Source: Bacteroidia bacterium
GTDB lineage: Bacteria; Bacteroidota; Bacteroidia; B-17B0; Aurantibacillaceae
Reading direction: 5' to 3'
Assembly: GCA_035567575.1 (NCBI GenBank)
Contig: DATMPR010000378.1
Coordinates: 1 to 43,037, forward strand
Length of the DNA: 43,037 bases
Shown: positions 2 through 42,938 of the stretch, one piece after another
Layout of the letters: each line of letters opens with the position of its first letter
How positions within the stretch are numbered: the first letter of the stretch is position 1
The notes under the pieces: model-generated
Told to the model about the DNA's origin: nothing
Databases searched by the model: none
Seen by the model: only the letters and a program-made list of their open reading frames with translations
Translations under genes and position numbers: made by a program

Positions 2-283
2 AAAACACCGGCTGAGGACCGCGACAGGATCTCACTGGCGAAACAAAGACATCTTATCAATAATTTTAAATTAGCTACAGAATTAGGAGCGGAAGTTATT
101 CAGGCAAAGAATAAAAATATTGCGCAAGCTATTTTTGAAACTGCACTTCAATATAAAACAACAACTATCTGTATAGGGAAACCACACGTCAGCCTGCTTA
201 AATCCATTCTTAGCAATACAATAACTGATCAGTTGCTTATTAAACTGGGCGATTCAGATATTGATCTTATAATATTATCATGA
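2..283 (+). CDS. kdpD: 3' fragment (5'-truncated by the window edge) of a KdpD-type potassium sensor N-terminal/USP-domain protein
   Basis: Frame 2 is open from base 2 to TGA at 281-283. It is absent from the ORF track because there is no start codon in the window. The translation ...LATELGAEVIQAKNKNIAQAIFETALQYKTTTICIGKPHVSLL...DSDIDLIILS aligns by eye with the end of the USP domain of E. coli KdpD (LAQELGAET...LGRP...DLDQVLV). An ATGA overlap joins it to the downstream kinase. Confidence 0.6.
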   Translation, partial: KTPAEDRDRISLAKQRHLINNFKLATELGAEVIQAKNKNIAQAIFETALQYKTTTICIGKPHVSLLKSILSNTITDQLLIKLGDSDIDLIILS

Positions 284-1983
284 TGCAAATAAAAATAAAA
301 ACCAAATTAAGTTTAGGTCTTGGCTTCCTGTTTGTGGTCATTATTCTCATCGGAACTGTAGGCGCAACTTATATTCACACTATTGCTGAAGAATCGAAAA
401 AAATATTAAAAGATAATTATGAATCAGTAGAGTATTCGAAATTAATGCTGCAGGAATTAGATGGTATCAGCACCGATAGTTCTACAGTTTTTAAAAAAAT
501 TGAATCGAATTTAAAATTGCAGGAAAGTAACGTCACAGAAATCGGTGAAAAAGAATATACCGAAGAGGTCCGGACAGCATTTAATAATATCAGAAGAAAA
601 GGCCAAGATAGTATATCTGTATTAAAACTTAGAAACGCACTTTATAAAATAACAGACCTTAACATGCAGGCAATTTTAAGAAAGAACAACCAGGCTCAGG
701 CCACGGCCGACAAGGTGCTTGTGTATATTGGAATAATTGGAGGTATCTGCTTTCTTGTCGTATTTACATTTATTATAAATTTTCCGGGATATATTGCCAA
801 TCCGATAAAAGAATTAACTGAGAGCATCAAACAAATTTCAAATAAAAATTATAATCAGCGTTTACATTTCAGATCCAACGATGAATTCGGAGAATTGGCT
901 GAAGCTTTCAATACAATGGCTGAAAAACTGGAACATTACGAAAACAGCAATCTTGCCAAGATCATGTTTGAGAAAAAACGGATCGAAACCATTATTAATA
1001 ATATGAAAGATGCTATCATTGGTTTAAATGAAAAGAAACTGATCTTATTTGCAAACATGCAGGCTGTTCAGTTATTAAATCTAAAGGAAGATGAAATGAT
1101 AGGAAAATATGCGCCTGACGTTGCTTTAAGAAATGATCTTCTGCGTTTATTACTGAATAATGCTAACGCTTCAAAACCTTTAAAGATTATCAGCAGTAAT
1201 AAAGAATGTTATTTTACAAAAGAGAATATTTCAATTTCAACCGATGAAAAACCAATTGGTGAAGTGATCTTACTAAAAAACATAACTCAATTCAAAGAAC
1301 TTGATCTTGCTAAAACCAATTTTATAGCTACAGTCTCTCACGAATTTAAAACGCCGATCTCATCCATAAAAATGAGTTTGCAAATTTTAGAAGAAGAACA
1401 CGCCGGCAAAATTAATGAAGAACAAAAACATTTGTTAGATAGCATTAAAGATGATGCAAACAGACTGCTAAAAATAACTGGCGAATTACTTAACATGACT
1501 CAAGTAGAAAGCGGAAACATACAATTAAGCATGATCCCTACCGAGCCAAAGGAAATAATTCAATACGCCATAAATGCAAATAAAGTACTGGCCGATCAAA
1601 AAAAAATTAAACTGAATGTTCTTTGTCCTGAAGAAACTCCGAAAGTACTTGCAGACAGTGAAAAAACGACCTGGGTATTTACCAACCTTATTTCGAATGC
1701 TATTCGCTATTCGGATGATAATTCAGCTGTTCAAATCAACATTACTCTCAAGGAAGGACATGTGTCATTTTCTGTGAAGGATACTGGCCAAGGTATTCCG
1801 TCACAATACAAGGATAAAATATTTGACAGATATTTCCGTGTTCCGGGAACAAAAAAAGAAGGCACAGGACTTGGTCTTGCCATAAGTAAAGAATTTATAG
1901 AAGCGCAAGGTGGGAAAATCGAACTGGAAACAAATTTAGGATCGGGCAGTGAATTTATTGTAACATTAAATAAGGCCGGCTAG
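280..1983 (+). CDS. Sensor histidine kinase (TM-HAMP-PAS-HisKA-HATPase), probably the kinase half of a split KdpD
   Basis: 567-aa ORF with two TM segments and a HAMP-like linker (PIKELTESIKQIS...EFGELAEAFNTMAEKL). It has a PAS-like segment, the H-box FIATVSHEFKTPISSI, and ATP-lid motifs DTGQGIP and GTGLGLAISKEF. Confidence 0.85.
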   Translation: MMQIKIKTKLSLGLGFLFVVIILIGTVGATYIHTIAEESKKILKDNYESVEYSKLMLQELDGISTDSSTVFKKIESNLKLQESNVTEIGEKEYTEEVRTAFNNIRRKGQDSISVLKLRNALYKITDLNMQAILRKNNQAQATADKVLVYIGIIGGICFLVVFTFIINFPGYIANPIKELTESIKQISNKNYNQRLHFRSNDEFGELAEAFNTMAEKLEHYENSNLAKIMFEKKRIETIINNMKDAIIGLNEKKLILFANMQAVQLLNLKEDEMIGKYAPDVALRNDLLRLLLNNANASKPLKIISSNKECYFTKENISISTDEKPIGEVILLKNITQFKELDLAKTNFIATVSHEFKTPISSIKMSLQILEEEHAGKINEEQKHLLDSIKDDANRLLKITGELLNMTQVESGNIQLSMIPTEPKEIIQYAINANKVLADQKKIKLNVLCPEETPKVLADSEKTTWVFTNLISNAIRYSDDNSAVQINITLKEGHVSFSVKDTGQGIPSQYKDKIFDRYFRVPGTKKEGTGLGLAISKEFIEAQGGKIELETNLGSGSEFIVTLNKAG

Positions 1984-2148: not shown

Positions 2149-3228
2149 TCAAAAACTCTCTCCTAAAGTAAAATAAAATCCACTATTATATTTACTGTAG
2201 TAACCGTAATCGATACGGATGTTTAATTTATCTTTTTGCAAAACACTTAATCTCACACCGCCGCCAAAACTGTAACGGAATTCGTTATTTAATAATGGAT
2301 CTTTTGAACTATAAACATTTCCAATACCGCCAAAAGCAACCAAACTAAATCGCCAATAAATAGGTGCGCGGTATTCAGCTACGCAACTAGCCATGTTAGC
2401 ATCGCGCAATCGTCCCTGATAAAAACCACGTAAATTATCGGAACCTCCAAGCCGCGCTAAATTTTTCATCGGACTTTCACCGAATGTAGAATAATTATAA
2501 AACTGTATAGCAAGAATATGTTGTAAAAATAATTTTTGAAATAAGCGGAGATCAATTGTCCATTTGTAAAAATTATAATTGGAGCCAATTGCTTTATCGT
2601 AATCAGTGAAAATGGAATTTATATAAAAACCTTTTGTCGGCCAAAATGCTTTATTGCGGGTATCGTAACTTACACTAAAACCCGCGCCTGAAATTTGGTA
2701 GGGAGATTTTCCTAAAAAAGCAGTTGTATCAAAAATTCCGCCCGCATTATATTTTAATCTGAAAACATTTTGATAGTCGTAAAGCAGGCCGGCAAATAAT
2801 CCCCTAAATAATTTTTTCTTAATATGAAGTGAAGATGTAAATTGATCTGATACATAACGTTCGTGCCATTCGTCTTTTGTATTCGGACCAATACCCCAAA
2901 AATTTTCAGGGAAATAAGAATGACCGGCATCAAAATATAAAATATATTTTTCTTTTGGTAAATAGATAACTGCATCGACAGCTTGTATGTTCTGTCCGCG
3001 CTCGGTCCAAACCCCAAATACGGAGACAAAAGAAGTTCTTGTTAAAGAATCATTTTTATGAGTTGTTTTAAAAGTGGCTTGACCGGCAGCACCATAAGCC
3101 CAACCGGTTTCGGGCGTACGGAAAAGTGCAGGAAGAACTAAAAAATTTACATTACGTGCAGTATCTTGTTTAAATTGTGCAGAAAGCAAAGCGGAATAAA
3201 AAATAAATATGAAGAAAAATTTATGCAA
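2149..3228 (-). CDS. Outer-membrane beta-barrel protein, Omp85/BamA-family barrel without POTRA domains
   Basis: 359-aa ORF with signal peptide MHKFFFIFIFYSALLSAQ and an alternating hydrophobic beta-strand pattern rich in Y/G/F. The C-terminal YFTLGESF is an aromatic beta-signal. The start codon is TTG at 3228. Confidence 0.7.
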   Translation of the reverse strand: MHKFFFIFIFYSALLSAQFKQDTARNVNFLVLPALFRTPETGWAYGAAGQATFKTTHKNDSLTRTSFVSVFGVWTERGQNIQAVDAVIYLPKEKYILYFDAGHSYFPENFWGIGPNTKDEWHERYVSDQFTSSLHIKKKLFRGLFAGLLYDYQNVFRLKYNAGGIFDTTAFLGKSPYQISGAGFSVSYDTRNKAFWPTKGFYINSIFTDYDKAIGSNYNFYKWTIDLRLFQKLFLQHILAIQFYNYSTFGESPMKNLARLGGSDNLRGFYQGRLRDANMASCVAEYRAPIYWRFSLVAFGGIGNVYSSKDPLLNNEFRYSFGGGVRLSVLQKDKLNIRIDYGYYSKYNSGFYFTLGESF

Positions 3229-4583: not shown

Positions 4584-5051
4584 TTATTTTTTGTTCAATT
4601 TATTAGTGGCTAAAAAAAATAAAACCGGAAGCGGTGATTGTGCTATGCCCATTAACCATCGGCTAACAGAATATTCATCACTATCCAGATTTACCCTTAC
4701 AAAGTACGACCATAACATTAATACAGAGCTTAAAAGTAATAATACTAAATAAGAATACGTAAACCATTTCAATAAATTTTTATTAGCCTTAAAAACCTTC
4801 AGAGACCAATAAGATAAGCCAAAAAAGAGAATAAAGAATACCAGTGTAAAAACGTATTTTAAATAGTAGGCTGTTTTATAGGAAAGACCAAGAAAATAGT
4901 TAAAATTTTCGTTAACGGGCACCGTGGTATTGTGGTTATAAAGCAAGTACATTGCATTGTTGTAATTTCCGAAAAAATATTCGCGGTAATAACCTAAGAG
5001 GGCAAATAGGGCGCCAAAAAAAACAAATAATATGGATTTATTTTTTAGCAT
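4584..5051 (-). CDS. Exosortase F system-associated membrane protein
   Basis: 155-aa polytopic membrane ORF that overlaps the 3' end of the xrtF-like gene by 14 nt. Its size, position and C-terminal [12 protein letters not shown] segment fit the XrtF partner family as I remember it. Confidence 0.6.
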
Positions 5052-5577
5052 CGTTTGATAAGGCAGAATATTTGTTTACCCAGATCATCCACAATAAAAA
5101 AATAAAACCATAGATAATAAATGTAAAAGTGTAGGTATGATTAAAATCAAGAACCTTTGGATTGTAAAAAGCAATTAACGCCAACGCAACAACTCTAAAA
5201 ATATTTAGAATATGAATTAATAATATCCCCAATGGTAAAAACCATATTTTCTTTTTTTGATGTCCGGGATAAGCAGCAATAAAAACGGCAAATAAACAAA
5301 ATAAAGTTATAGCGTTACAGCTTGATCCGATCCAAACACCATCAGAGCCATCAATACCAATTACCTGATAATCGGTATCGCTTAAAGTTTTAAAAGTATT
5401 GTAACCGAATAATTTTAAAATGGCATCCGATGAATTAATAATAAATGCAATAAACGTTTGATCGATGACTGTATACTTTTTTACACCGAATTGGTATATA
5501 AGATAAAGACCCAGATAACTTAGAGAGGAAAAAATTAAAAATTTAAGAAAGCGGTTTTGTTTAAGGGCAGTAAACAT
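5038..5577 (-). CDS. xrtF: Exosortase family protein XrtF
   Basis: 179-aa polytopic ORF with an exosortase-like Cys/Arg/His series (GSSCNAI ... LNIFRVVALA ... FNHTYTF). The small size and the paired downstream membrane protein are typical of Bacteroidota XrtF. Confidence 0.75.
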   Translation of the reverse strand: MFTALKQNRFLKFLIFSSLSYLGLYLIYQFGVKKYTVIDQTFIAFIINSSDAILKLFGYNTFKTLSDTDYQVIGIDGSDGVWIGSSCNAITLFCLFAVFIAAYPGHQKKKIWFLPLGILLIHILNIFRVVALALIAFYNPKVLDFNHTYTFTFIIYGFIFLLWMIWVNKYSALSNDAKK

Positions 5578-5606
5578 GGTATAAAGATAAAACCCCAGCA
5601 GTAGAA

Positions 5607-5828
5607 TTAAACGATAGTTGAATCTTTTTTCTTTTTATCGTAAAGTTTTTTTGCACCATAAGCAGCACCGGCAATAATTAGAGCGCTAATGCCTCCGTCA
5701 ATAGGGATACATGGTGGCGGCCAGCAAGGAGGACTAACTGATGGCGGAGGTGGTGGAGCAGCTGCAAAAGCAGTTTGACAATAAAGAACCACAAAAAACA
5801 GGACTAATATAAAGCCTAATCGTTTCAT
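5607..5828 (-). CDS. Small secreted Pro/Cys-rich protein with a PEP-CTERM-like C-terminal sorting tail (candidate XrtF substrate)
   Basis: The tracked ORF is 5607..5876, but a TATATTTG -7 box (5853..5846, minus strand) lies inside that extension, so Met17 (ATG at 5828) is preferred. The product is signal peptide MKRLGFILVLFFVVLYCQTAFA, then AAPPPPPSVSPPCWPPPCIPIDGG, then TM ISALIIAGAAYGA, then KKLYDKKKKD. Confidence 0.55.
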   Translation of the reverse strand: MKRLGFILVLFFVVLYCQTAFAAAPPPPPSVSPPCWPPPCIPIDGGISALIIAGAAYGAKKLYDKKKKDSTIV

Positions 5829-5845
5829 TTTTAATACAATAACTG

Positions 5846-5853
5846 CAAATATA
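5846..5853 (-). promoter_or_regulatory. Bacteroidota -7 promoter box (TATATTTG) for the small-protein/xrtF/glyA unit
   Basis: Plus-strand CAAATATA equals minus-strand TATATTTG, which matches the TAnnTTTG consensus. Its G lies 17 nt upstream of the ATG at 5828. Confidence 0.35.
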
Positions 5854-5900
5854 AAATAAAAATACCTGAACACCAAAACAATTTATCTTTTAAAATCAAC

Positions 5901-5908
5901 TATCTTTG
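5901..5908 (+). promoter_or_regulatory. Bacteroidota -7 promoter box (TATCTTTG) for the wzc-hisH-hisF unit
   Basis: TATCTTTG matches TAnnTTTG and sits 12 nt before the GTG start at 5921. No clear -33 TTTG was seen. Confidence 0.35.
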
Positions 5909-5920
5909 TAACTTCTACAC

Positions 5921-8320
5921 GTGGAAACCAAGAAACAAGCCATAATAACCGAAAAAGACCTTAATCTCTTATGGCGTGTAATAAAATCCAATTGGTATAT
6001 CCCCATTATTCTTGTGCCAATATTTTATGTTGCAGGTTCTTTTTGGGCTCACAAACAAGTAGATATCTCTCAGGCATCTACACAACTTTTACTGAATAAA
6101 AATGATGAATATTATGGTGGTAGTTTAGTAACTGATGCTAGCGCTTATTATATTGATAACTCAAATGAAATGAAAGTTATCGGTTCTTATGATTTAATGA
6201 AAGAAACCATATCGCGTTTAAAAGACAAACTTCAGGTATCCTATTATATTATTGGAAGGGTAAAAACTACGGAACAGTTTTCAGGCAATCCTTTCGAAAT
6301 CATTATTAATAATATTAATCCTGAATGGTATGAAGCAGTAGTTGATTTTAAAATTCTGGACTTTGATAAATATGAAATGTCGATGCATAGTGGTGATCAG
6401 ATCAAAACATTCAGAGGGGAATTTGATAAAGAACTAATTAATTTGGAATTTGATATTTTAGTAAAACGCTCAGGCATTTTTACAAAAGAAATAGTGCCTA
6501 GTATATCTGGATTAAACTATCAAATAATAATTCATTCTACAGATTGGCTAATTGGAACTTTTCAGGCTAGTATGAAGGTTGAAAATCCTGAATATACCAA
6601 TATTTTAAAAGTAAGCATGGACGATATTATTCCGGAAAGAGCCGTGCTGGTATTAGATACTTTAAACAGGGTGTATTCTGAAAACTCTTTAGTATCAAAA
6701 ATAGAACTGAACGAAAAAACCATTACTTATATTGATAAGCAATTACACGAAATTACGGATACTTTAAAGAATATTGAAGATACCATGCAGTGGTATAAGG
6801 AGAGTAAAAATATTTTAGATCTGAATTGGGAGAAAAACGATTATTTCGGAAAACTATCGGCGTATGATAACATGCGCTCTGGCTATAAACTACAGATAGA
6901 AACTTTAAATGATCTTGAAAAATACATCATTGAAGATAAGGATCCACAGTTTTTGCCTCCAAGTGTTTTCGTATCAGAAAAAGGAGGCTTTATGCCCTCT
7001 GCAGTTGATGAACTTTATAAAACGCAATTAACTTTAAATAGGACTTATGCCACGGCTAAAGAAAATTATCCGGGTATAAGTGATCTTAAACAAACTATTA
7101 AAAAATTAAAACAAGACCTTTTGGTTTATATTAGCAACTCCCGAAAGGCAATCTTTAAGGCTATTGAAAACGTAAACCAGGAGATAGCAGGTTATATTGG
7201 CAGTATAAAAACACTTCCGGGGAAGCAGCGTGAAGTTACCAATATTCAACGGAAAGTAAACATAAGCGAAAATTTATATAATTTTTTATTAGAAAGAAGA
7301 GCAAGTACCCGAATTGCGCGTGCCAGTATTATCCCTACCGTAAAAATAATTGAACAACCAAGAAATATTGGGTTAATAGATGAGTATAAGCCCAAAATAT
7401 TAAAGCAATTTATTACTGCAGGACTTTTAGTCTCAATAATGATAATAATAATAAGGGCCTTCTTTTTCTCGCGAATTAAAACTGTTAATCACCTTAAAGA
7501 ACTTACCGATCTGCCGGTTATTGGTGTTTTGCCTTCTATTAAAATGCATAGTGATAAGGGTATTGCCGTTGATGAGCAACCGAACTCTAAAATATCAGAA
7601 GCCTTCCGGAATTTACGGACCAATTTGCAATATGCGAACATTGATGCGCAATCACGCTCATTTTTGGTTACCTCTTATTCTCCCGGTGAAGGAAAAACAT
7701 TTACATCAATTAACCTTGCAACAATTTTAGCTAAAACCGGAAAAAAGGTAGTCTTACTTGAATTGGATTTACATAAGCCACGTGTTAGCAGGGTAATGGG
7801 TGTAATTCCAAAAATTGGTATTAGTACTTTTTTAGCGGGGCAAAATACAATTGAAGAAATAACCGAAAAGACAGTAATTGAAAATTTGTATTGTATTTAT
7901 GCAGGCCCTATTCCTCCTAATCCATCTGAATTAGTGCTTTCTGAAAAATTGAAAGACCTTATTATTTATACTAAAAATAATTTCGATTATGTAATTATTG
8001 ATACGCCTCCTGCAGGACTTTTATCTGATGCAATTTACTTAATGCAATTTGTGGATGCAGCTTTATTTGTATTGAATACAAAAGCGGCTACTAAAAAAGT
8101 GGTATCCTTCGTACAAAATCTGGTTGTAAACAATAATCTTAAAAACATGTTCTTGATTCTAAATGGTGTTAAGAGTATGTCAGGAAAATATTATTACAAA
8201 GGTTATGGTTATACTTATGGATACGGTTATGGATACGGATACGGTTACGGATATGGTAAAGGTTACGGTGGTGGATACGGAAGTAAAGGCAGCGGAAAAT
8301 CAGGCTATCTAAAAAAATAA
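5921..8320 (+). CDS. wzc: Polysaccharide co-polymerase / BY-tyrosine autokinase (Wzc/PCP-2a type)
   Basis: 799-aa ORF with a GTG start. It has an N-terminal TM, a long coiled periplasmic-type region and a second TM. The kinase motifs are Walker A SPGEGKTFTS, A' VVLLELDLHKP and B DYVIIDTPP, followed by a C-terminal Tyr-rich tail. Confidence 0.85.
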   Translation: METKKQAIITEKDLNLLWRVIKSNWYIPIILVPIFYVAGSFWAHKQVDISQASTQLLLNKNDEYYGGSLVTDASAYYIDNSNEMKVIGSYDLMKETISRLKDKLQVSYYIIGRVKTTEQFSGNPFEIIINNINPEWYEAVVDFKILDFDKYEMSMHSGDQIKTFRGEFDKELINLEFDILVKRSGIFTKEIVPSISGLNYQIIIHSTDWLIGTFQASMKVENPEYTNILKVSMDDIIPERAVLVLDTLNRVYSENSLVSKIELNEKTITYIDKQLHEITDTLKNIEDTMQWYKESKNILDLNWEKNDYFGKLSAYDNMRSGYKLQIETLNDLEKYIIEDKDPQFLPPSVFVSEKGGFMPSAVDELYKTQLTLNRTYATAKENYPGISDLKQTIKKLKQDLLVYISNSRKAIFKAIENVNQEIAGYIGSIKTLPGKQREVTNIQRKVNISENLYNFLLERRASTRIARASIIPTVKIIEQPRNIGLIDEYKPKILKQFITAGLLVSIMIIIIRAFFFSRIKTVNHLKELTDLPVIGVLPSIKMHSDKGIAVDEQPNSKISEAFRNLRTNLQYANIDAQSRSFLVTSYSPGEGKTFTSINLATILAKTGKKVVLLELDLHKPRVSRVMGVIPKIGISTFLAGQNTIEEITEKTVIENLYCIYAGPIPPNPSELVLSEKLKDLIIYTKNNFDYVIIDTPPAGLLSDAIYLMQFVDAALFVLNTKAATKKVVSFVQNLVVNNNLKNMFLILNGVKSMSGKYYYKGYGYTYGYGYGYGYGYGYGKGYGGGYGSKGSGKSGYLKK
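8189..8317 (+). repeat. Imperfect tandem GGN-TAY hexanucleotide repeat encoding the (GY)n tail of Wzc
   Basis: It encodes YYYKGYGYTYGYGYGYGYGYGYGKGYGGGYGSKGSGKSGYLKK. The codons alternate among ggt/gga and tat/tac. Confidence 0.8.
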
Positions 8321-8326
8321 ATCCAA

Positions 8327-8932
8327 ATGATCGTTATTGTTGATTATGGTTTAGGAAACCTTGTTTCAGTAAAAAACATGCTCAAGAAATTGGGTATCGA
8401 ATCAACAATTACTGATAAAAAAGACGCAATTGAGAAAGCGCAAAAAATAATTTTACCCGGTGTTGGCGCTTTTGACAACGGGATGAATCTTATTAAACAA
8501 AAAGGTTTATTGGGAGTATTAAATCAAAAAGCTACAATAGAAAAAATTCCTGTTCTTGGAATTTGTTTAGGGATGCAGTTGCTAACTAAAGGCAGCGAAG
8601 AGGGAATTGAAAAAGGATTAGGCTGGGTAGATGCACAAACCATAAAATTTAATTTTACGGATAGAGTCTTGAAAATTCCGCATATGGGCTGGAGTTATAT
8701 TGATGTAAAAAAAGAAAATGAATTGATCAGGAAAGAAGATAAACACCGTTTTTATTTTGTGCATTCGTATTATGTAAAATGCAATGATGAAAGTGATGTG
8801 ATCGCCACCTGTAATTATGGTACTGAATTCACTTGCATTTTAAACCACGGAAATATTTTTGGCGCACAATTTCATCCCGAGAAAAGTTTGAAATTCGGAA
8901 TGGAACTCCTTAATAATTTTAGTAAGCTATAA
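8327..8932 (+). CDS. hisH: HisH-type glutamine amidotransferase subunit (WbuY-like paralogue in a glycan locus)
   Basis: 201-aa ORF with a class-I GATase triad context: GICLGMQLL (Cys), and FVHSYY and FHPEKS (His/Glu). Confidence 0.85.
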   Translation: MIVIVDYGLGNLVSVKNMLKKLGIESTITDKKDAIEKAQKIILPGVGAFDNGMNLIKQKGLLGVLNQKATIEKIPVLGICLGMQLLTKGSEEGIEKGLGWVDAQTIKFNFTDRVLKIPHMGWSYIDVKKENELIRKEDKHRFYFVHSYYVKCNDESDVIATCNYGTEFTCILNHGNIFGAQFHPEKSLKFGMELLNNFSKL

Positions 8933-8959
8933 TTTTAACCGTTAAATCTAACCTCCAAA

Positions 8960-9715
8960 ATGGCACTCAAAAGGATCATACCATGCTTGCTTTACGACGG
9001 TAAAGGTTTAGTAAAGACGGTTAAGTTTAAAAACCCTTCCTATGTGGGTGATCCTATAAATGCCATAAAAATATTTAATGAGAAAGAGGTTGATGAACTA
9101 ATTCTAATCGACATTAACGCTACGCGCGAGCGGAGGAAACTAAACATTTCAAAAATTGCTGATTTGGCAGGAGAATGTTTTATGCCCTTTGCTTATGGCG
9201 GTGGGGTAAAAACCGTTAGTGAGTTTTATGAGTTGTTTAAAAATGGTGTTGAAAAAGTAGTTGTTAATTCTTTAATTTTCGAAAACCCTTCAGTCATAAT
9301 AGAAGCTGTGAGTAAATATGGTTCCCAAGCTGTTGTAGCTTGTGTAGATTTTAAGAAGAATTTATTTGGTAAAAAAAATGTTTATTCTTTTAGCGGACAT
9401 TCAGTTAAGTACAGCATGCCCGATTTTATTAAATATCTCGAAGAGGAATTAGGTGTTGGCGAATTGTTTTTGCAAAATGTGGATGCAGAAGGAACCTGGA
9501 ATGGTTTTGATAACGAGTTCGTAAAACAAATTACCGATCTAACTTCCTTACCGGTAATTGCCTGCGGGGGTGCCGGCAATATTCAACATTTAAAAGACAT
9601 ACTTTATACTTCGGGAGCAAATGCTGCCGCAATTGGCAGTATGGCAGTGTATTCTAAAAAAGGAATGGGTGTTTTGATTAACTTTCCACAGCGAAGCAAT
9701 GTTATAATCGAGTAA
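8960..9715 (+). CDS. hisF: HisF-type cyclase-like subunit (HisF2/WbuZ/AglZ-type acetamidino-modification protein)
   Basis: 251-aa ORF with TIM-barrel HisF blocks RIIPCLLYDGKGLVKTVKF, ELILIDINAT, PVIACGGAGN and AAAIGSMAV. It is adjacent to hisH within a polysaccharide locus rather than a his operon. Confidence 0.85.
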   Translation: MALKRIIPCLLYDGKGLVKTVKFKNPSYVGDPINAIKIFNEKEVDELILIDINATRERRKLNISKIADLAGECFMPFAYGGGVKTVSEFYELFKNGVEKVVVNSLIFENPSVIIEAVSKYGSQAVVACVDFKKNLFGKKNVYSFSGHSVKYSMPDFIKYLEEELGVGELFLQNVDAEGTWNGFDNEFVKQITDLTSLPVIACGGAGNIQHLKDILYTSGANAAAIGSMAVYSKKGMGVLINFPQRSNVIIE

Positions 9716-10457: not shown

Positions 10458-10970
10458 ATGGTAGAAAAAGAAAAAAATTGGCACGCGTTATATGTTGCTT
10501 CGCGGCAAGAAAAAAAAGTATTAAAACGTCTTGAACAAAAAAACATTGAAACGTATTTGCCAATTTTAAAAACAATGAAACAATGGAGCGACCGTAAAAA
10601 AATGGTAGAGCTGCCTTTATTGAATGGTTATATTTTTGTGAGAATAACAAATTTAGAAAATGAAAAGACTATACAAACTCCCGGCGTTGTTAATTTTGTC
10701 CGTGCCGAAGGAAAAATTGCCAAAGTACGCGATATTGAGATTGAGCGCTTAAAACAATTGATCGATTTAGGATATCAAATGGAATTGAATGGCGTGAAAC
10801 GAAATTATAGAGAAGGCGATAAAGTAAAAATAACTTCAGGCGCGTTAAAAAATGTAGAAGGATTTGTTGTCGAGAATAAGGAAGGCAGATATATAGATGT
10901 TTTATTAGAAAGTATTGGCCAAAGTATCCGTGTTAAATTGCCCGAGGAAATTTTAATACCAATAAAATAA
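10458..10970 (+). CDS. UpxY-family (NusG-like) transcription antiterminator
   Basis: 170-aa ORF with an NGN-like N-terminus WHALYVASRQEKKVLKRLEQKNIETYLPI...WSDRKKMVELPLLNGYIFV. A KOW-like segment GDKVKITSGALKNVEGFVV follows. It lies at the head of the glycan operon. Confidence 0.8.
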   Translation: MVEKEKNWHALYVASRQEKKVLKRLEQKNIETYLPILKTMKQWSDRKKMVELPLLNGYIFVRITNLENEKTIQTPGVVNFVRAEGKIAKVRDIEIERLKQLIDLGYQMELNGVKRNYREGDKVKITSGALKNVEGFVVENKEGRYIDVLLESIGQSIRVKLPEEILIPIK

Positions 10971-11825
10971 ATGACTGAAGAAAAAGATTGGGATATAATT
11001 ATTAAACCAAAACCAAAATTATTTCATTTTGGTTTTAAAGAAATTTGGGCTTACCGCGACCTCATAATTTTATTTGTAAAACGCGATATTGTTTCACAAT
11101 ACAAACAAACTATTTTAGGCCCATTATGGTTAATTATTCAACCAATATTAACTACTGTTTTTTTTACAATTATTTTTGGAAAATTTGCAAAATTCGATAC
11201 AGGGGGTATTCCATTTCCTATTTTTACTTTATCAGGCTTAACAATTTGGAATTTTTTTGCCATGTCACTTAACAAAACTTCCTCTGTATTTGTAAATAAT
11301 GCTACCATATTTGGTAAAGTTTATTTCCCGCGATTAACAGTTCCTTTTTCTGCGATTATAGCAAACTTCATAACCTTTCTTGTTCAGTTTGCCATTTTAT
11401 TATTGTTGTTGTTTTATTATAAATTTTTTAATAATTATGTTTGGCAAATAAATTATTTCGGATTATTAGGGCTGCTATTATTGCTTATTATTTTCAGTCT
11501 TTTTGGTTTAGGTGCCGGACTAATTGTTTCTTCCATTACTACTAAGTATAGGGATTTAGGATTTTTAGTAGGTTTTGCTTTGCAGTTCGTAATGTACTTT
11601 TCATCTGTTGTTTTTCCTTTAGATAAATTGGGACCTAAATGGGGATCGATTATAAACTTAAATCCATTAATTCATTTAGTTCATTGGTTCAGGGCAATTA
11701 TAATAAATGCTCCAATGCCAAACATGTCATTACTCTTATATAGCACTGCTTTTATGATAATAGTGTTGTTTAGTGGTATTTTAGTTTTTAACCGGGTTGA
11801 AAAATCTTTTATGGATACTGTTTAA
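10971..11825 (+). CDS. wzm: ABC-2 type polysaccharide export permease
   Basis: 284-aa ORF with about 6 TM segments. The N-terminal ELWxYRDL-type motif is present (EIWAYRDLIILFVKRDIVSQYKQTILGPLW). Its stop overlaps the start of the ATPase gene (TAATG). Confidence 0.85.
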   Translation: MTEEKDWDIIIKPKPKLFHFGFKEIWAYRDLIILFVKRDIVSQYKQTILGPLWLIIQPILTTVFFTIIFGKFAKFDTGGIPFPIFTLSGLTIWNFFAMSLNKTSSVFVNNATIFGKVYFPRLTVPFSAIIANFITFLVQFAILLLLLFYYKFFNNYVWQINYFGLLGLLLLLIIFSLFGLGAGLIVSSITTKYRDLGFLVGFALQFVMYFSSVVFPLDKLGPKWGSIINLNPLIHLVHWFRAIIINAPMPNMSLLLYSTAFMIIVLFSGILVFNRVEKSFMDTV

Positions 11826-13114
11826 TGAAAAGCGTAATTAAAGTAGAAAATATTAGCAAACTGTACCAGTTAGGTGATATAGGTTCAGGTTCTATTGGTA
11901 ATGATCTTAAAAAATGGTGGGCTTCTGTAAGAGGTAAAGAAGATCCATTCGCAGCCATTGCAGAAACAAACGATAGAGCTGCTAAGGGAAATTCGGATTA
12001 TGTATGGGCTTTAAAAGATATTAATTTTGAGGTTAACCAGGGGCAAGTCCTTGGTATTGTAGGTAAAAATGGAGCAGGTAAGTCAACATTATTGAAAATA
12101 TTATCTAGAACCACTTTACCTAATAAAGGAGAAATTAAAATTAAAGGGAGAATTGCCAGTTTGCTTGAAGTTGGGACTGGCTTTCATCCTGATCTCACTG
12201 GCAGGGAAAATGTTTTTTTGAACGGCGCAATTCTGGGGATGACCAAAGCAGAAATTAAAAGTAGGTTTGATGAAATAGTTGACTTTAGCGGTGTTGAGCG
12301 ATATATTGATACACCTGTTAAAAGGTATTCATCAGGTATGTATGTGCGTTTAGCTTTTGCAGTGGCCGCGAATTTAGAGCCGGAAATTTTAATAGTTGAT
12401 GAAGTGTTGTCGGTGGGAGATGCAGAATTTCAAAAAAAATGTATGGGTAAAATGAAATCTGTTTCCGGACTCGGCAGAACTATTCTTTTTGTTAGTCATA
12501 ATATTCCTTCGATTCGACTGCTTTGTGATAAATGTCTTTACCTCGAAAAAGGAAGCGTTAAACGCTTGGGAGATACAGATACTATAATTGCTGAATACCT
12601 TGCCGGGGATGTTAAAGAAAAAAATTTAGTGTCGGGAGAAATACCTGATAAATTAAGTTTATATAATACAGGAGAGGCTAAATTCAGGAAGATATATATC
12701 ATTGATAAAAATAACGATAAAGTAAAAGAACTTGAATTTACTGAAAAATTAATTGTTGAATTGGAAATGGAAGTGTTTAAGGATATAGATAGTGTTACCC
12801 TAGAAGTAAATATAGTTAATCAATATGGTGAAGTAGTGATAATGGCGAATGAAAACGAAAAATATAAACCTGTTTCTTTTCAAAAAGGGAGATATTTAAT
12901 AAATGTAGATTTTAATGAAGAATTAATGCCAGGTAATTATTCATTAGGTGTTGGAATCTCTCATTTTCATACAGGAAGCAGTATAGATCTTATAGAAAGT
13001 TTTTATCCATTTACGATAAGTAAAGAATCTAAATCAAAAAACATGGAATACCCTTGGGCAACAATACGGGGATATATTAAACCTAAAACAACGTGGAACG
13101 TAACAAAAATTTAA
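11825..13114 (+). CDS. wzt: Polysaccharide ABC exporter ATP-binding protein with a C-terminal glycan-binding (Wzt_C-like) domain
   Basis: 429-aa ORF with Walker A GKNGAGKST, signature YSSGMYVRLAF and Walker B ILIVDEVLSVGD. An extra ~165-aa beta-rich C-terminal extension (from about 12608) is present, as in Wzt proteins with a carbohydrate-binding module. Confidence 0.9.
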   Translation: MKSVIKVENISKLYQLGDIGSGSIGNDLKKWWASVRGKEDPFAAIAETNDRAAKGNSDYVWALKDINFEVNQGQVLGIVGKNGAGKSTLLKILSRTTLPNKGEIKIKGRIASLLEVGTGFHPDLTGRENVFLNGAILGMTKAEIKSRFDEIVDFSGVERYIDTPVKRYSSGMYVRLAFAVAANLEPEILIVDEVLSVGDAEFQKKCMGKMKSVSGLGRTILFVSHNIPSIRLLCDKCLYLEKGSVKRLGDTDTIIAEYLAGDVKEKNLVSGEIPDKLSLYNTGEAKFRKIYIIDKNNDKVKELEFTEKLIVELEMEVFKDIDSVTLEVNIVNQYGEVVIMANENEKYKPVSFQKGRYLINVDFNEELMPGNYSLGVGISHFHTGSSIDLIESFYPFTISKESKSKNMEYPWATIRGYIKPKTTWNVTKI

Positions 13115-15288: not shown

Positions 15289-17181
15289 ATGTGCGGAATA
15301 ACCGGCATATTTAACATTAACGGTACTGCAGTATCAGCTTCAGTTTTAAAAAACATGACTGATAAAATTGCTCATCGCGGTCCTGACAGTGAAGGAATTT
15401 TTATTAACGAAAATATTGGACTCGGTCATCGTCGCCTGGCAATTTTAGATACTTCACGTCTTGGCGGTCAGCCAATGTTTTCAAAAAATGGAGAATGGGC
15501 AGTTATTTTTAATGGTTGTATTTATAATTATCCCGAATTAAAATCTGAATTAAAATCGAGAGGACATTCATTTGTTTCAACAACAGATACAGAAGTTATA
15601 ACGGAAGGCCTCGCAGCTTATGGAATTTCTTTTTTTGAAAGATTCGATGGTATGTTTGCAATTGCAGCGTGGCATGAGCCAAGCAAAACATTGTATTTAA
15701 GCCGCGACCGTTATGGCATTAAACCTTTATATTATTGGCTGAATGGTAAAACGGTTTTATTCTCTTCGGAAATAAAAGCTTTTATGGCTCATCCTGATTT
15801 CAAAGTTGAAGTAAATAAAGCGGCTCTAAACGAATATTTTACTTTCCAAAATCTTTTTTCTTACCAAACACTTTTTAAAGATGTGATAATGTTACCGCCT
15901 GCTAATACTGTAAAGGTAGACACAAGCAGTGTAACAGCAATAAAACATAGTTCGTGGTGGAATTATGATTTTTCGGAAACCGATGAAAGCATGAGTTTCG
16001 AAGATGCCAAAATGGAAACCGAGCGCTTATTAAAAAATGCAGTTAAAAAGCAGATGATATCGGATGTTCCTGTTGGTTCTTATTTATCAGGAGGAATGGA
16101 TTCTGGTTCTTTAACTGCTATTGCAAGTAAACATGTAAACCGCTTAACAACATTTACAGCAGGATTCGATATGTCTTCAGTAACCGGTGTTGAAGCAAAT
16201 TACGATGAACGTCGTGATGCTGAGTTAATGGCTAATTATTTTAAAACTGAACATTATGAGCAAGTAATAAATGCGGGCGATCTCGCTTGGTCATTACCAA
16301 GAGTTGTTTGGCATTTAGAAGATCTTCGTGTTGGAATGAGTTACCCGAATTATTATATAAGTCGTTTAGCTTCAAAATTTGTGAAGGTTTGTTTACAAGG
16401 AACCGGTGGAGACGAATTATACGGTGGTTACCCATGGAGATATTATAGGATTTTTCAATCTTTAGATCAAAGGTCTTTTTTCGATAATTATTATAGTTTC
16501 TGGCAAAGATTGGTTTCGGATAGCGATAAAAAAAATATTTTTAACCAGGATTTATATTCGGGAATTGACATTGATGAACCGCGTAAAGTATTTGAACGTG
16601 TATTTACTTTTAATAAGAAATTGAAATATGAAACACCTGAACAACATATTAATAATAGTTTGTATTTCGAAATAAAAACCTTTTTACCCGGCTTACTTTT
16701 AGTAGGTGATAAATTATCAATGGCAAATGGTTTGGAAGAAAGGTTTCCATTTTTGGATAATGATCTGGTAAATTTTGCCCAGAAAATTCCTGTTCGTCAT
16801 AAATTAGGAAACTTACAAAACATGAAAAAACTGGATGAAAATATGTCATCTAAACGCGATAAGTATAAAGAGTTTGATGATGGGAAAAATGTTTTAAGAA
16901 AAGCTATGCTCGACTTTATTCCTGAATCAATTGTAAATAGAAAAAAGCAAGGTTTTTCAGCACCCGACGAAAGCTGGTATAGAGGTGAGAATGCAGACTA
17001 TGTAAAGGAACTTTTGTTAAATAAAAAAACCATCTCATCGGAATTCATAAATCCAGATTTTACCAAAAAAATTATTGATGAACATGTTAATCATCGTGTT
17101 AATCATCGCTTATTGATTTGGTCCTTGATGAATTTTGAATGGTGGTGTCGTTTATTTTTAAACGGAGAAAAAATCTCATAG
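15289..17181 (+). CDS. asnB: Asparagine synthase-like glutamine-hydrolysing amidotransferase (paralogue 1)
   Basis: 630-aa ORF with the N-terminal nucleophile MCGITGIF. Further blocks are HRGPD, GHRRLAILD, FNGCIYNY and TDTEV, plus the PP-loop SGGMDSGS. Confidence 0.9.
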   Translation: MCGITGIFNINGTAVSASVLKNMTDKIAHRGPDSEGIFINENIGLGHRRLAILDTSRLGGQPMFSKNGEWAVIFNGCIYNYPELKSELKSRGHSFVSTTDTEVITEGLAAYGISFFERFDGMFAIAAWHEPSKTLYLSRDRYGIKPLYYWLNGKTVLFSSEIKAFMAHPDFKVEVNKAALNEYFTFQNLFSYQTLFKDVIMLPPANTVKVDTSSVTAIKHSSWWNYDFSETDESMSFEDAKMETERLLKNAVKKQMISDVPVGSYLSGGMDSGSLTAIASKHVNRLTTFTAGFDMSSVTGVEANYDERRDAELMANYFKTEHYEQVINAGDLAWSLPRVVWHLEDLRVGMSYPNYYISRLASKFVKVCLQGTGGDELYGGYPWRYYRIFQSLDQRSFFDNYYSFWQRLVSDSDKKNIFNQDLYSGIDIDEPRKVFERVFTFNKKLKYETPEQHINNSLYFEIKTFLPGLLLVGDKLSMANGLEERFPFLDNDLVNFAQKIPVRHKLGNLQNMKKLDENMSSKRDKYKEFDDGKNVLRKAMLDFIPESIVNRKKQGFSAPDESWYRGENADYVKELLLNKKTISSEFINPDFTKKIIDEHVNHRVNHRLLIWSLMNFEWWCRLFLNGEKIS

Positions 17182-20623: not shown

Positions 20624-21976
20624 ATGAAAACAGTGACGATAATAGGCGGCGGCGCAAGCGGCATGTTAACTGTAGTGAATATTATTAAAATGTCTACAAA
20701 ACCAACGACTATTAATATTATCGAACCTAATTCAATTGGACTCGGAATGGCTTTTAATGTAGATAGTATGAATTTGTTATTAAATGTCCCTGCCATTAGA
20801 ATGAGCTGTATTTCTACGGAACCAAAACATTTTATTAATTGGATAGCTGAGAAACAATTATCTTATGGAGAAAAAGATTTTGTGCCAAGAAAAATATATG
20901 GTCAATACCTTTCCGATACATATAACAAATTTGTTAAATCAAATAAACTAGTAAGCGTAGATCATATTAAGGATCTTGCAGTGGATATAGTTTTAGAAAA
21001 TGATTCCTATTATGTAGAAACAAAAGCCGGTAAGAACATAAAGTCAGATAAGGTTGTGCTTGCTCTTGGAAATTACCCCCCAAATCATCCTAAAACAAAA
21101 TCTTTAGGTTATATTAATAGTCCTTTATATATTTCAAATCCTTTAAATAATAATTCTTTAGATGGATTAGGTCCGGATATTAAAAATGTTTTTGTATTGG
21201 GGACAGGTTTAACTGCCGTTGATTCAATAATTTTAGTTCGCCAAAAATATCCTAAATCGAATATCATTGCTTTTTCGAACCACGGGTATTTGCCTGTCCA
21301 ACATAATTTGTCTCAAACTTACCCTTCATTTTATGATGAGTTAAAAGGAGTAAAAACAACTTTGGAAATTTTTAAAACAGTAAATAAGCATATTAAAATA
21401 GCTGCGAGCCAACAAATAGATTACAAAGCGGTTACTGATTCGATACGACCTTATACTCAGGAAATATGGAATAATCTTCCCGACGAAGAAAAACTTGCTT
21501 TTCTCCGTCACTTACGTCACATATGGGGAGTGGCGAGGCATCGGATGCCATACGAATCGTCTAATTATATTTACGAATTAATAAACTTTGGTAAAATAAA
21601 ATTGTTCAGTGGAAAAGTGAAGGAGATAGTTGAAGAAAATAAGCACCTGAATATTACTTTGCAAATAGGAAAAAAGCAAATAGAAGAAACTTTTAGCGTA
21701 GATTGTTTGTTGAATTGTACCGGTCCTCAAACCGATTATGAAAAAATCGATAATGAATTGGTAAAAAACATTTTGCAAAAAGGGATAATTCAAACCGATA
21801 AAATTAAATACGGAATTAATACAGATCAAAACGGAGCGATTATCAATAAAGAAAACGAGGTTTCTCAAAAAATTTATACCATTGGTCCGCCAATGAAAGG
21901 AATTTTGTGGGAATGTGTCGCGATACCCGAAATTAAAATGCAGGCGTATAAGCTTGCCGAAAAATTAACCGAATAA
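20624..21976 (+). CDS. FAD/NAD(P)-binding two-Rossmann flavoprotein of unknown function (YdhS-like)
   Basis: 450-aa ORF with an N-terminal TIIGGGASGML and a second dinucleotide motif VFVLGTGLTAVDS. The block HLRHIWGVARHRMP is one I recall from YdhS/PF13454-type proteins. Confidence 0.6.
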   Translation: MKTVTIIGGGASGMLTVVNIIKMSTKPTTINIIEPNSIGLGMAFNVDSMNLLLNVPAIRMSCISTEPKHFINWIAEKQLSYGEKDFVPRKIYGQYLSDTYNKFVKSNKLVSVDHIKDLAVDIVLENDSYYVETKAGKNIKSDKVVLALGNYPPNHPKTKSLGYINSPLYISNPLNNNSLDGLGPDIKNVFVLGTGLTAVDSIILVRQKYPKSNIIAFSNHGYLPVQHNLSQTYPSFYDELKGVKTTLEIFKTVNKHIKIAASQQIDYKAVTDSIRPYTQEIWNNLPDEEKLAFLRHLRHIWGVARHRMPYESSNYIYELINFGKIKLFSGKVKEIVEENKHLNITLQIGKKQIEETFSVDCLLNCTGPQTDYEKIDNELVKNILQKGIIQTDKIKYGINTDQNGAIINKENEVSQKIYTIGPPMKGILWECVAIPEIKMQAYKLAEKLTE

Positions 21977-22833
21977 TGTTTAAAAAGAATAAAATGCAAC
22001 AAACAAAAAAAGATAGCTTAGTAAATAATAAATTTTTTATTTCCGGTTGCGGTAGAAGCGGAACAACCGCAATGGCTAAAATTTTAAATACTGCATCAAA
22101 TGCCGAAGTTTTTGTTGAACAAGAACCAAAGTTATGTATTGAGTCCCGGGATGCTTATAAAGGTATGCTCTCTGATCCAACTGAAACCTTAAGGAACTTA
22201 AAGGAAAAACATATCGATGAAACAATTAATAAGGGATTAATATTTGGTGATAAGAATCAAAATTATTTACCTTTTATTCCATACCTCGAGAAATTATGGA
22301 AACCAAAATATATTTTTATGATTCGGGATGGCCGTGATATTATTCGATCCGGAATTGACAATCGTAAATTTATGAAAAGAGGAGGGATTTTTTCAATGAA
22401 TGAGGATGATGTTAATTCAACTGTTACCGCTAAAGAAGATTGGTGGGATTATAGCAGACTAAGACCTAATATTGGCACAGAATACCATGAAGTTTGGCAG
22501 AGCATGGATATTTTTGAAAAGTATTGTTGGTTTTGGAATGAATACAATGAAGTTCTATTGGAAAATCTTAAAAAAATAGAATCCGAAAGATACATGCTAA
22601 TAGATATTTCATCTCTTACTAAAGAAAAATGCAAAGAGGTTTTTGATTTTTTAGGATTAGAAGGTTTTGATCCTGAGAAGATCGAAAACTTGATCTCTTC
22701 TAAAGTTAATTCTCTCGAAGAAAAAACCGGTAAAGAGCATGTCTTTCCTCACTGGAAGGATTGGTCGGCTGAACAAAATAATATTTTTAATAAGCACTGT
22801 GGTGTGATGATGAAAAAACTGGGGTACTTATGA
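21976..22833 (+). CDS. PAPS-dependent sulfotransferase
   Basis: 285-aa ORF. It has the 5'-PSB-like loop FISGCGRSGTTAMAKIL and the 3'-PB-like FMIRDGRDIIRS. Its start overlaps the upstream stop (TAATG). Confidence 0.8.
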   Translation: MFKKNKMQQTKKDSLVNNKFFISGCGRSGTTAMAKILNTASNAEVFVEQEPKLCIESRDAYKGMLSDPTETLRNLKEKHIDETINKGLIFGDKNQNYLPFIPYLEKLWKPKYIFMIRDGRDIIRSGIDNRKFMKRGGIFSMNEDDVNSTVTAKEDWWDYSRLRPNIGTEYHEVWQSMDIFEKYCWFWNEYNEVLLENLKKIESERYMLIDISSLTKEKCKEVFDFLGLEGFDPEKIENLISSKVNSLEEKTGKEHVFPHWKDWSAEQNNIFNKHCGVMMKKLGYL

Positions 22834-22855
22834 TTTCTGAATTTTATAAATTATA

Positions 22856-24175
22856 ATGAAAAGAAAATATCACCTTTTGCTGTTTGAAGCTATTATTTTT
22901 TATGGTATTTCCATCTATTGGTTTTTCATAAGAAAGAAATTAGTTAATAGCAGGAAGTATGATTCAAAACCGAGATTGTTTTTTGGCCCTACTCCAATTA
23001 TAAATAACAAATATTGGTCTCATTCTCTTATTGAATTAGGTTATACAAGTAAAACGGTAATGAATGGTGTTTATTCTATAAATAATAAAGAAGATTTTGA
23101 TCTGTATTTCGATGAAATTTATGATCCATGGGGTAACTGGAAGTACAGGAAAGTAGCAGATTATTTAAAAATATGGCAGGGCTACAAACTGCTGGATTAT
23201 GCTCTAAAGAATTTTGACATTTTTCATATTCCATATGACGGAATTTTTTTACCAAACTCTATTTTTTGGAAAAAAGAAGCTCTAATCTTAAAAAAATATG
23301 GATGTAAAATTGTCACTATCCCGTATGGCGGAGATTTTTATGTGTATTCAAAGTTAAGAAGTCATTCTCGGCATCATACTTTTTTAATGAGTTACCCTGA
23401 AAAAGCTGATCAGGAAGATTCAATTAACGAAAGAGTTAGTCATTGGAATAAATATTCGGATTGTATTATTGTATCTAGAGCTATAGACAGTATCCCTAAA
23501 TGGGATATTCTAACATTTAGTATTCTAAATATTAATACAAAAGAATGGCAATCACAGGGCAAAAGAAAATTTGAAACAGACGGTGTCAATGGGAGTGTTA
23601 AAATAGTTCACGCGCCAAACCATAGGGGTGTAAAGGGTACGGAATTTATTGTTGAAGCAATAAAGGAATTAAAAGCTGAGGGAATTCTTATCGATTTTAT
23701 TTTAATAGAAAAGATGAAGAACTCTGAGGTTAAGAGAATTTTGCAAACTGAAGCTGATATTTTGCTTGAGCAGATAATTATTGGACACGGATTAAATGCC
23801 ATTGAAGGAATGGCTTGTGGTTTACCGGTGATCACGAATCTTGAAGAGGAAGGGTATGCAAATGTTTTCAGGAGATTTTCTTTTTTTAATGAATGTCCCT
23901 TGGTTTCAGCAACTCCTGAAGACATTAAAGAAACCCTTAGATTATTGATAAAAAATCCAGCATTAAGACAAAAGCTGGGAGATGCCGGAAAAGAATATGC
24001 GGAAAAGTATCATTCATATCGATCATCTCAATATATGTTTACTAAAGTTTATGAAAAGATCTGGCATGGAAAGCAAGTTGATCTTATTAACTTATATCAC
24101 CCATTATTTCCCGACAGTTATAATAACCAAAGCCCGAAAGTTCAGCATCCATTGATCGAAAATAAAATAAAGTGA
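22856..24175 (+). CDS. GT-B fold glycosyltransferase with an N-terminal TM anchor
   Basis: 439-aa ORF. The C-terminal half has GT1/GT4-like blocks VHAPNHRGVKGTEFIVEAIKELK and EGMACGLPVITN. It is a paralogue of the 27327..28571 product. Confidence 0.6.
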   Translation: MKRKYHLLLFEAIIFYGISIYWFFIRKKLVNSRKYDSKPRLFFGPTPIINNKYWSHSLIELGYTSKTVMNGVYSINNKEDFDLYFDEIYDPWGNWKYRKVADYLKIWQGYKLLDYALKNFDIFHIPYDGIFLPNSIFWKKEALILKKYGCKIVTIPYGGDFYVYSKLRSHSRHHTFLMSYPEKADQEDSINERVSHWNKYSDCIIVSRAIDSIPKWDILTFSILNINTKEWQSQGKRKFETDGVNGSVKIVHAPNHRGVKGTEFIVEAIKELKAEGILIDFILIEKMKNSEVKRILQTEADILLEQIIIGHGLNAIEGMACGLPVITNLEEEGYANVFRRFSFFNECPLVSATPEDIKETLRLLIKNPALRQKLGDAGKEYAEKYHSYRSSQYMFTKVYEKIWHGKQVDLINLYHPLFPDSYNNQSPKVQHPLIENKIK

Positions 24176-24233
24176 TCTTCAATAAATTGAAATAGAATAA
24201 TGAAATGAATTTTAAAAAATTTAATTTTATATA

Positions 24234-29798: not shown

Positions 29799-29800
29799 GT

Positions 29801-35938: not shown

Positions 35939-35939
35939 G

Positions 35940-40862: not shown

Positions 40863-40865
40863 TAA

Positions 40866-41903: not shown

Positions 41904-41913
41904 AAAATAAGTT

Positions 41914-42927: not shown

Positions 42928-42938
42928 AAAAACAAACC

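Follow-up and report, generated by a model that had tools for sequence, protein, structure and literature searches.

A probable dedicated PID-CTERM/exosortase X system in an uncultured Bacteroidota lineage

Archaeosortase A (ArtA) is the best-studied precedent for exosortase-like protein sorting, in which a C-terminal helix is cleaved and a lipid is attached, and the mechanism put forward below is modelled on it. PEP-CTERM signals, the targets of a related system, tag many varied cargo proteins per genome. For the Bacteroidota, exosortase targets were called unknown in the experimental literature in 2024 (PMC10936215), and the databases hold a candidate answer for two sister families, XrtX and XrtY. 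Mutants in the xrtF system of Flavobacterium johnsoniae lose biofilm formation and surface colonisation, with the substrates stated to be unknown, and xrtF mutants show a phenotype pattern common to porU and porZ mutants (PMC10936215). Here we describe a locus from a Bacteroidia bacterium of the Aurantibacillaceae, contained in a stretch of 43,037 nucleotides (contig DATMPR010000378.1 of GenBank assembly GCA_035567575.1, positions 1 to 43,037 of the forward strand) that is referred to below as the window. Three adjacent minus-strand genes spanning about 1.3 kb encode a 73-residue mini-protein, an exosortase and a membrane protein partner, and we think it likely that they constitute a dedicated exosortase system of the PID-CTERM/exosortase X type, with one enzyme and one adjacent target. 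The pairing of this signal with this enzyme is already known in public databases, and the locus is in that respect a rediscovery.

The mini-gene begins with an ATG at 5828 and extends to 5607 including the stop codon (minus strand), and a spacer of 29 nt (5606→5578) separates it from xrtX (5577→5038), which codes for a 179-residue exosortase with the motifs GSSCNAI, NIFRV and FNHTY. The partner gene (5051→4584) overlaps xrtX by 14 nt and codes for a polytopic membrane protein of 155 residues. This layout, with its coordinates and motifs, had been proposed in an initial annotation made from the DNA sequence alone, and both the list of open reading frames (ORFs) and a reading of the reverse strand agree with it. 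A longer, 89-residue form of the mini-ORF starting from a TTG at 5876 was considered and rejected; it is unlikely because MK is where the orthologues begin and because a candidate promoter element, a −7 box described below, falls inside the extension.

The mini-protein matches NF046080 (PID_CTERM) with 43.3 bits (cutoff 26), such that residues 42-65 correspond to positions 2-25 of the 25-position profile, and its homologues carry the precomputed Pfam label PF28310, which is likewise named PID_CTERM. The mini-protein itself has no match in the local Pfam copy, PF28310 evidently being newer than that copy, and no PEP-CTERM model is listed for it in NCBIfam at E<=1. The initial annotation had recognised a tripartite sorting signal of the exosortase type and had suggested a scan against the CTERM sorting-signal hidden Markov models; the score against NF046080 bears out the former, and matching models do exist, in NF046080 and PF28310.

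In order, the mini-protein consists of MKR, a hydrophobic core, AFA followed directly by AAPPPPPSVSPPCWPPPCIPIDGG, then ISALIIAGAAYGA and KKLYDKKKKD; in full it reads MKRLGFILVLFFVVLYCQTAFA, then AAPPPPPSVSPPCWPPPC-IPIDGG-ISALIIAGAAYGA-KKLYDKKKKD-STIV. Residues 1-22 (MKRLGFILVLFFVVLYCQTAFA; 5763..5828, minus strand) form a predicted Sec signal peptide in which an n-region, a hydrophobic core and an AxA site are visible, as they are in the orthologues. This prediction was made by inspection and hydropathy, and the signal peptidase I site is presumed to lie between AFA and AA. The predicted mature periplasmic segment (residues 23-41, AAPPPPPSVSPPCWPPPCI; 5706..5762, minus strand) combines polyproline with a pair of cysteines in CWPPPC, and is followed by the PID-CTERM sorting domain (residues 42-65; 5634..5705, minus strand), which comprises PIDGG, the transmembrane helix ISALIIAGAAYGA and the start of the lysine cluster. 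All three parts of the C-terminal signal are thus present (PIDGG, ISALIIAGAAYGA and KKLYDKKKKD), and the PID_CTERM match ends 8 residues before the stop. Hydropathy shows a signal-like segment at residues 1-25 and a single C-terminal helix at about 45-59. The CWPPPC cysteines are invariant in the clade to which the window belongs, and elsewhere in the family they are variably spaced or absent; this loop falls outside the 25-position PID_CTERM model, and a disulfide between Cys35 and Cys40 may be supposed from the sequence. A lipoprotein reading via Cys17 was rejected, as Cys17 is not conserved.

The enzyme scores 181 bits against NF046081 (exosortase X), whose cutoff is 170, and the next NCBIfam models are XrtF with 92.9 bits (cutoff 90) and XrtY with 59.9 bits; the exosortase/archaeosortase signature TIGR04178 is matched with 49.6 bits (cutoff 23). 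XrtX is also the top family for all 23 enzyme homologues, with a best E-value of 4e-54 as against 3e-31 for XrtF. The window enzyme lies just 11 bits above the XrtX cutoff, and its clade is at the edge of the model. Members of the clade are named 'PID-CTERM protein-sorting domain-containing protein' and 'exosortase X' in GenBank and RefSeq, and the Joint Genome Institute (JGI) label is XrtF. Judged by sequence, the locus is a somewhat divergent member of the curated PID-CTERM/exosortase X system, and not an XrtF system.

The initial annotation had named the enzyme XrtF, had expected the locus to be informative about what XrtF does, and had noted that XrtF was first described with no target signal assigned. 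In the F. johnsoniae study the substrates of XrtF are indeed stated to be unknown (PMC10936215), and together with the JGI label and a score against TIGR04128 (XrtF) slightly over its cutoff this would favour a genuine XrtF system that reveals the missing XrtF substrate. That this is so we regard as very improbable: the XrtX model scores twice as high and is on top for every homologue, the partner matches the XrtX-associated family, if weakly, and has no XrtF-associated family listed in NCBIfam at E<=1, and the NCBI name for clade members is that of exosortase X. The name XrtF does not therefore hold for this enzyme, and because it is best classed as exosortase X, the locus gives no direct evidence on the function of XrtF.

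Residues C87, H122, R128 and H147 of the enzyme are invariant among the 23 XrtX homologues, and we take Cys87 (5317-5319), Arg128 (5194-5196) and His147 (5137-5139; all minus strand) as candidate catalytic residues, with His122 as the alternative histidine. An AlphaFold2 model (predicted local distance difference test score, pLDDT, 76.5) suggests a fold in which five long helices are accompanied by a small beta-sheet (residues 61-84). The idea that enzyme and partner are parts of a split exosortase was abandoned, as the partner profile and the XrtX profile are unrelated (hhalign probability 0.5%).

In a scan of one genome per species, 277 genomes contained a relative of XrtX, and 80 loci were kept, all from Bacteroidota metagenome-assembled genomes (MAGs); the nearest is that of a Sphingobacteriaceae MAG with 92% identity. 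A mini-ORF of about 72 residues lies directly 5′ of xrtX on the same strand at 80/80 loci, such that the conserved upstream small ORF that the initial annotation had suggested looking for across the Bacteroidota is found throughout, and the partner gene is located 3′ of xrtX at all 80. The sorting motif takes the form P[IV]DGG at 71 loci and P[IVA]D[NT]G at 9. CWPPPC is intact at 79 loci; the sole locus with a disrupted loop (L034:3797-3979, in our numbering) reads …PPPYIPIDGG… in a shortened frame and looks like a frameshift or assembly error. There is one PID-type tail within the whole window, and likewise one per related locus of ~8.5 kb. Under Haft's criterion for dedicated one-to-one sorting systems, enzyme and target are encoded by consecutive genes (10.1101/2023.06.07.544157), and the mini-gene and xrtX are so arranged, 29 nt apart here and adjacent at 80/80 loci. 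Two metagenome contigs (L104 and L109) carry a CWPPPC-type mini-gene with no XrtX-like ORF detected in the several kb downstream, one of which (L109) keeps glyA, and these are possible exceptions to strict adjacency.

Conservation of the locus extends to its neighbours. The glyA gene (4576→3302, minus strand), which codes for serine hydroxymethyltransferase (NF000586, 596.7 bits; PF00464) and follows the partner gene after 7 nt, is located 3′ of the partner gene at 78/80 loci; it is a housekeeping gene held at this operon without obvious functional reason. On the other side of the mini-gene, and transcribed divergently, the window has a gene for a Wzc-like polysaccharide co-polymerase/tyrosine autokinase (5921..8320, plus strand; TIGR01007, 155 bits, cutoff 108, together with Wzc-family matches). 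Such a wzc gene was detected at 74 of the 80 loci, of which 73 have it divergent and 5′ of the mini-gene and one downstream, the remaining loci being cut by a contig end or without a match.

The mini-gene is constrained as a protein-coding sequence. A protein search with the mini-protein gave 187 homologues, almost all of 66-111 residues and all carrying PF28310, and an alignment of 39 of them has the consensus PPP..CWPPPC.PIDGG..L..G..KK, with P26-28, C35, W36, P37-39, C40, P42, I43, D44, G45, G46, L50, G54, K60 and K61 invariant. At the invariant C-W-P-P-P-C-x-P-x-D-x-G positions every synonymous codon is found among the 80 loci, and over a 42-codon core the ratio of nonsynonymous to synonymous substitution rates (dN/dS) comes to 0.013 in the comparison with the nearest relative, 1842 pairwise comparisons giving a median of 0.16. 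The spread of synonymous codons and the low dN/dS indicate that the mini-ORF is translated and strongly constrained, and the dN/dS values rule out a spurious ORF. With adjacency in 80/80 genomes and strong purifying selection, the proposal that the mini-protein is a dedicated substrate encoded beside its sortase has stood up well.

As far as sampled, the wider PID-CTERM family consists of mini-proteins. Searched in full with HMMER, a set of 1.84 billion representative proteins yielded 157 matches at E<1e-10, and 149 of the best 150 of these are 53-130 residues long, the sole long one being a polyproline artefact. A tail-weighted search with a 42-column profile gave 3706 matches, the best 120 of which are all of 66-74 residues, and a DNA-pattern scan of a random metagenome sample (P[IVM]DGG, 11 residues, then G[AG][KR]K) gave 81 matches including 78 true tails, all 78 of them in mini-ORFs. 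In everything sampled, the PID-CTERM tail is on mini-proteins of about 53-130 residues alone and never on large cargo, an observation that is new here.

The N-terminal parts of the family are of several types, with CWPPPC, other cysteine pairs, a single cysteine or none. An exosortase adjoins 17 of the 23 cysteine-bearing mini-genes with enough flanking sequence, compared with 2/34 of those without cysteine (tblastn), and an XrtX-like ORF is present at 18 loci of the metagenome sample (hmmsearch with the XrtX profile). Of the mini-proteins lacking cysteine, 8/10 score above the PID_CTERM cutoff, and one cluster of them corresponds to a RefSeq protein from Yeosuana (Flavobacteriaceae). In some members, such as those at L126 and L099, the predicted mature periplasmic part has just ~7 residues, QGAPPAT preceding PIDGG at these two loci. 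Many mini-proteins start with Gln directly after the AxA site, which fits the mature-N-terminal-Gln (pyroglutamate) rule of the Bacteroidota.

Cysteine-less mini-genes usually lie directly 3′ of a large gene on the same strand (metagenome loci L089-L168), and 30 of 35 such upstream neighbours have a type IX secretion system (T9SS) type A sorting domain by NCBIfam. With a local profile of the T9SS C-terminal domain, which is partly circular in that it was built from the same set, matches were found for 40/43 upstream neighbours of at least 200 residues, all mini-protein classes included, as against 12/206 other ORFs (Fisher p≈7e-32). Examples of mini-genes behind T9SS genes are L132:5920-6144, L141:8208-8441 and 10806-11036, and L159:6850-7053; L141 has two tandem modules, each a gene for a T9SS protein of ~800 residues and then a mini-gene. 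The loci L084, L086 and L087 also have a large gene followed by a mini-gene, the large gene being of T9SS type in L086 and just under the domain cutoff in L084, and in both L084 and L086 an XrtX or XrtY-like enzyme is encoded 3′ of the mini-gene. The clade of the window has no cargo gene, and wzc directly abuts the mini-gene. The family thus presents two arrangements, also new here, in which Cys-loop mini-genes adjoin xrtX and Cys-less ones usually trail T9SS cargo genes with no exosortase nearby.

The mechanism that we propose for the window system draws, step by step, on analogy with sortases, ArtA and exosortases. The Sec pathway would export the 73-residue precursor, and signal peptidase I would cleave it behind AFA, leaving ~20 residues (AAPPPPPSVSPPCWPPPCIPID...) in the periplasm, anchored by the C-terminal helix with the lysine cluster in the cytoplasm (N-out/C-in). 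PIDGG would then be recognised by XrtX at the outer face of the membrane, Cys87 presumably acting with Arg128 and a histidine, and cleavage through a thioester intermediate would allow the short Pro-rich, probably disulfide-looped peptide to be passed to an acceptor, with the 155-residue partner as a putative helper in the transfer. The acceptor is most likely an envelope glycan or lipid, because in nearly all cases wzc and a polysaccharide cluster adjoin the operon in divergent orientation, and the peptide itself would be the product, rather than a passenger, because no sampled PID-CTERM tail is on a large protein.

That no sampled tail bears a passenger domain would also be expected if the mini-protein were not processed at all, and remained for good a single-pass protein in the membrane, serving the XrtX-partner complex or the Wzc machinery as subunit or regulator, with PIDGG, the small-residue helix and KK as a docking element. 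A periplasmic part as short as about 7 residues before PID (L126) is odd for cargo, and the helix and an AYGAKK motif are conserved as well as PIDGG is. However, in its tripartite layout and with a Cys/Arg/His exosortase next to it, the mini-protein agrees with all characterised sortase-like systems, the strongest invariance in the clade is in the periplasmic CWPPPC-PIDGG segment that a pure membrane dock would not need, and for many family members there is neither an exosortase nor wzc in the vicinity on which to dock, and we consider an unprocessed subunit unlikely. Another alternative takes processing for granted and dispenses with the acceptor, with XrtX as a hydrolytic protease that frees a ~20-residue disulfide-looped polyproline peptide, either a signal or a product resembling a peptide made by the ribosome and modified after translation (RiPP). 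The signal peptide, the short conserved core with its invariant cysteine pair, the removable C-terminal segment and the dedicated, adjacent, protease-like enzyme would all suit such a peptide, but the operon has no conserved genes for modification enzymes, an exporter or a receptor, the core is of low complexity and varies widely across the family, and the characterised relatives, sortase and ArtA, are transpeptidases. A freed peptide is in our estimate quite unlikely.

Returning to cleavage and transfer by XrtX, the two arrangements in the family allow a broader proposal, which we put forward tentatively and with considerable doubt. PID-CTERM may not be a passenger-sorting tag at all, and the Pro/Gly-rich peptide could itself be the product, moved by XrtX-type exosortases onto an envelope lipid or glycan. 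Across the Bacteroidota, the mini-genes are on this view nearly constant companions of T9SS type A cargo genes. If true, the pathway of the exosortases (XrtX, XrtY and, in trans, perhaps XrtF) would be coupled to the surface attachment of T9SS cargo or polysaccharide, the phenocopying of porU and porZ mutants by F. johnsoniae xrtF mutants would be explained, and the window would hold a cargo-less, wzc-linked, Cys-loop version of the T9SS/mini-gene arrangement.

Several points weigh against the interpretation of the locus as a dedicated PID-CTERM/exosortase X system. A literature search gave no paper on PID-CTERM or exosortase X, nor experiments on cleavage, transfer product or acceptor, and neither a sequence search nor a Foldseek comparison of the AlphaFold2 model with the PDB gave a solved relative of XrtX, such that the catalytic assignment is unanchored. 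The linkage to wzc and glyA could be gene order inherited in one lineage, and the marine relative L084 has wzc but not glyA and a different gene order. Many Cys-less mini-genes are far from any exosortase, which implies that XrtX-type enzymes may also act in trans. The partner, finally, scores 38.8 bits (E=7e-10) against NF046082, the XrtX-associated membrane protein, for which the cutoff is 75. The alignment to NF046082 is nevertheless full-length, with residues 5-147 of the partner placed on positions 4-141 of the 147-position profile, and 37/40 partner orthologues match the same model, all far under the cutoff (best E 8e-12, or roughly 45 bits versus 75). From these sequence comparisons we class the partner as homologous to the XrtX-associated family, in the equivalent position and from a divergent clade.

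The mini-gene, xrtX, the partner gene and glyA are probably on one transcript, and a terminator scan found no terminator-like site between the operon genes. Between the mini-gene and wzc, which are transcribed divergently, the intergenic region (5829..5920) contains a −7 box of the Bacteroidota type (TAnnTTTG, here TATATTTG; 5853→5846, minus strand) 17 nt 5′ of the mini-gene ATG. The strict motif occurs 5′ of the mini-gene at 19/80 loci, compared with 7% of random 120-nt windows, which weakly suggests that the box could be the mini-gene promoter. In a scan for sigma-70 promoters the real sequence was not better than shuffled sequence, and no Rfam families were found across the whole window. 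Beyond glyA there is a gene for an Omp85-family outer-membrane protein (2149-3228, minus strand), which is found after glyA at just 12/80 related loci, and the flank is continued by a HAMP/PAS histidine kinase gene (280-1983, plus strand).

On the plus strand, a large polysaccharide cluster extends from 5921, with the Wzc-like kinase gene first. The C-terminus of the Wzc-like protein (8180-8320, plus strand) has a Gly-Tyr repeat of unusual length (…YYYKGYGYTYGYGYGYGYGYGYGKGYGGGYGSKGSGKSGYLKK) in place of a short cluster of tyrosines. The cluster includes genes for a HisH/HisF-like amidotransferase-cyclase pair, an AsnB-like amidotransferase, a sulfotransferase and an adenosine 5′-phosphosulfate (APS) kinase (8327-9715, 15289-17181 and 21976-24827, plus strand), a NusG-like regulator of the UpxY type (10458-10970, plus strand) and a Wzm/Wzt ABC exporter (10971-13114, plus strand), as well as epimerases, a DegT aminotransferase, a FemAB-like protein, a deacetylase and glycosyltransferases. 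The HisH/HisF-like, AsnB-like, sulfotransferase and APS kinase genes suggest that the glycan of this cluster is amidated and sulfated. About 15 more ORFs on the same strand extend the cluster (26447-43037, plus strand).

The locus provides a clean and testable example of an exosortase system, in which about 1.3 kb encode a very small, invariant substrate together with its enzyme and a partner, and establishing the processing and the acceptor here would reveal the role of this enzyme class in a phylum where it affects biofilm and surface colonisation. What the present analysis adds to the databases is a comparative picture, in which the tails are on mini-proteins only, the Cys-loop forms go with xrtX and the Cys-less forms with T9SS cargo genes.

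Among described systems, the closest is the curated PID-CTERM/XrtX system itself (NF046080, NF046081, NF046082 and PF28310), with which the window locus shares gene order and gene sizes, and both signal and enzyme score above the respective cutoffs. It differs in that the clade of the window is at the edge of the model, the partner orthologues tested are well under the cutoff, and CWPPPC is outside the signal model. The XrtF system of F. johnsoniae (Fjoh_1448/Fjoh_1449; TIGR04128) likewise has an exosortase of ~180 residues followed by a small polytopic partner; XrtX and XrtF are sister families, separated here by 181 versus 92.9 bits, and XrtX proteins cross-match the XrtF model at about 1e-26. 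The PEP-CTERM/exosortase A (EpsH) system shares the tripartite signal, a polytopic enzyme with Cys, Arg and His, and linkage to Wzc-type polysaccharide genes. Unlike PEP-CTERM, the tail of the window system is on mini-proteins only and the target is adjacent to the enzyme in a one-to-one relationship, and the initial ~95 positions of the Pfam profile for EpsH have no counterpart in XrtX. ArtA, which acts on PGF-CTERM signals in Haloferax volcanii, belongs to the same enzyme superfamily (TIGR04178 signature), and the match to it is weak (27.8 bits, cutoff 75); that system is archaeal and has a large S-layer glycoprotein as cargo and a different motif. JDVT-CTERM and other dedicated systems (10.1101/2023.06.07.544157) have in common with the window locus a one-to-one relationship of enzyme and target encoded by consecutive genes in one operon, whereas the JDVT-CTERM enzyme is an Rce1-like intramembrane protease and its signal is another one.

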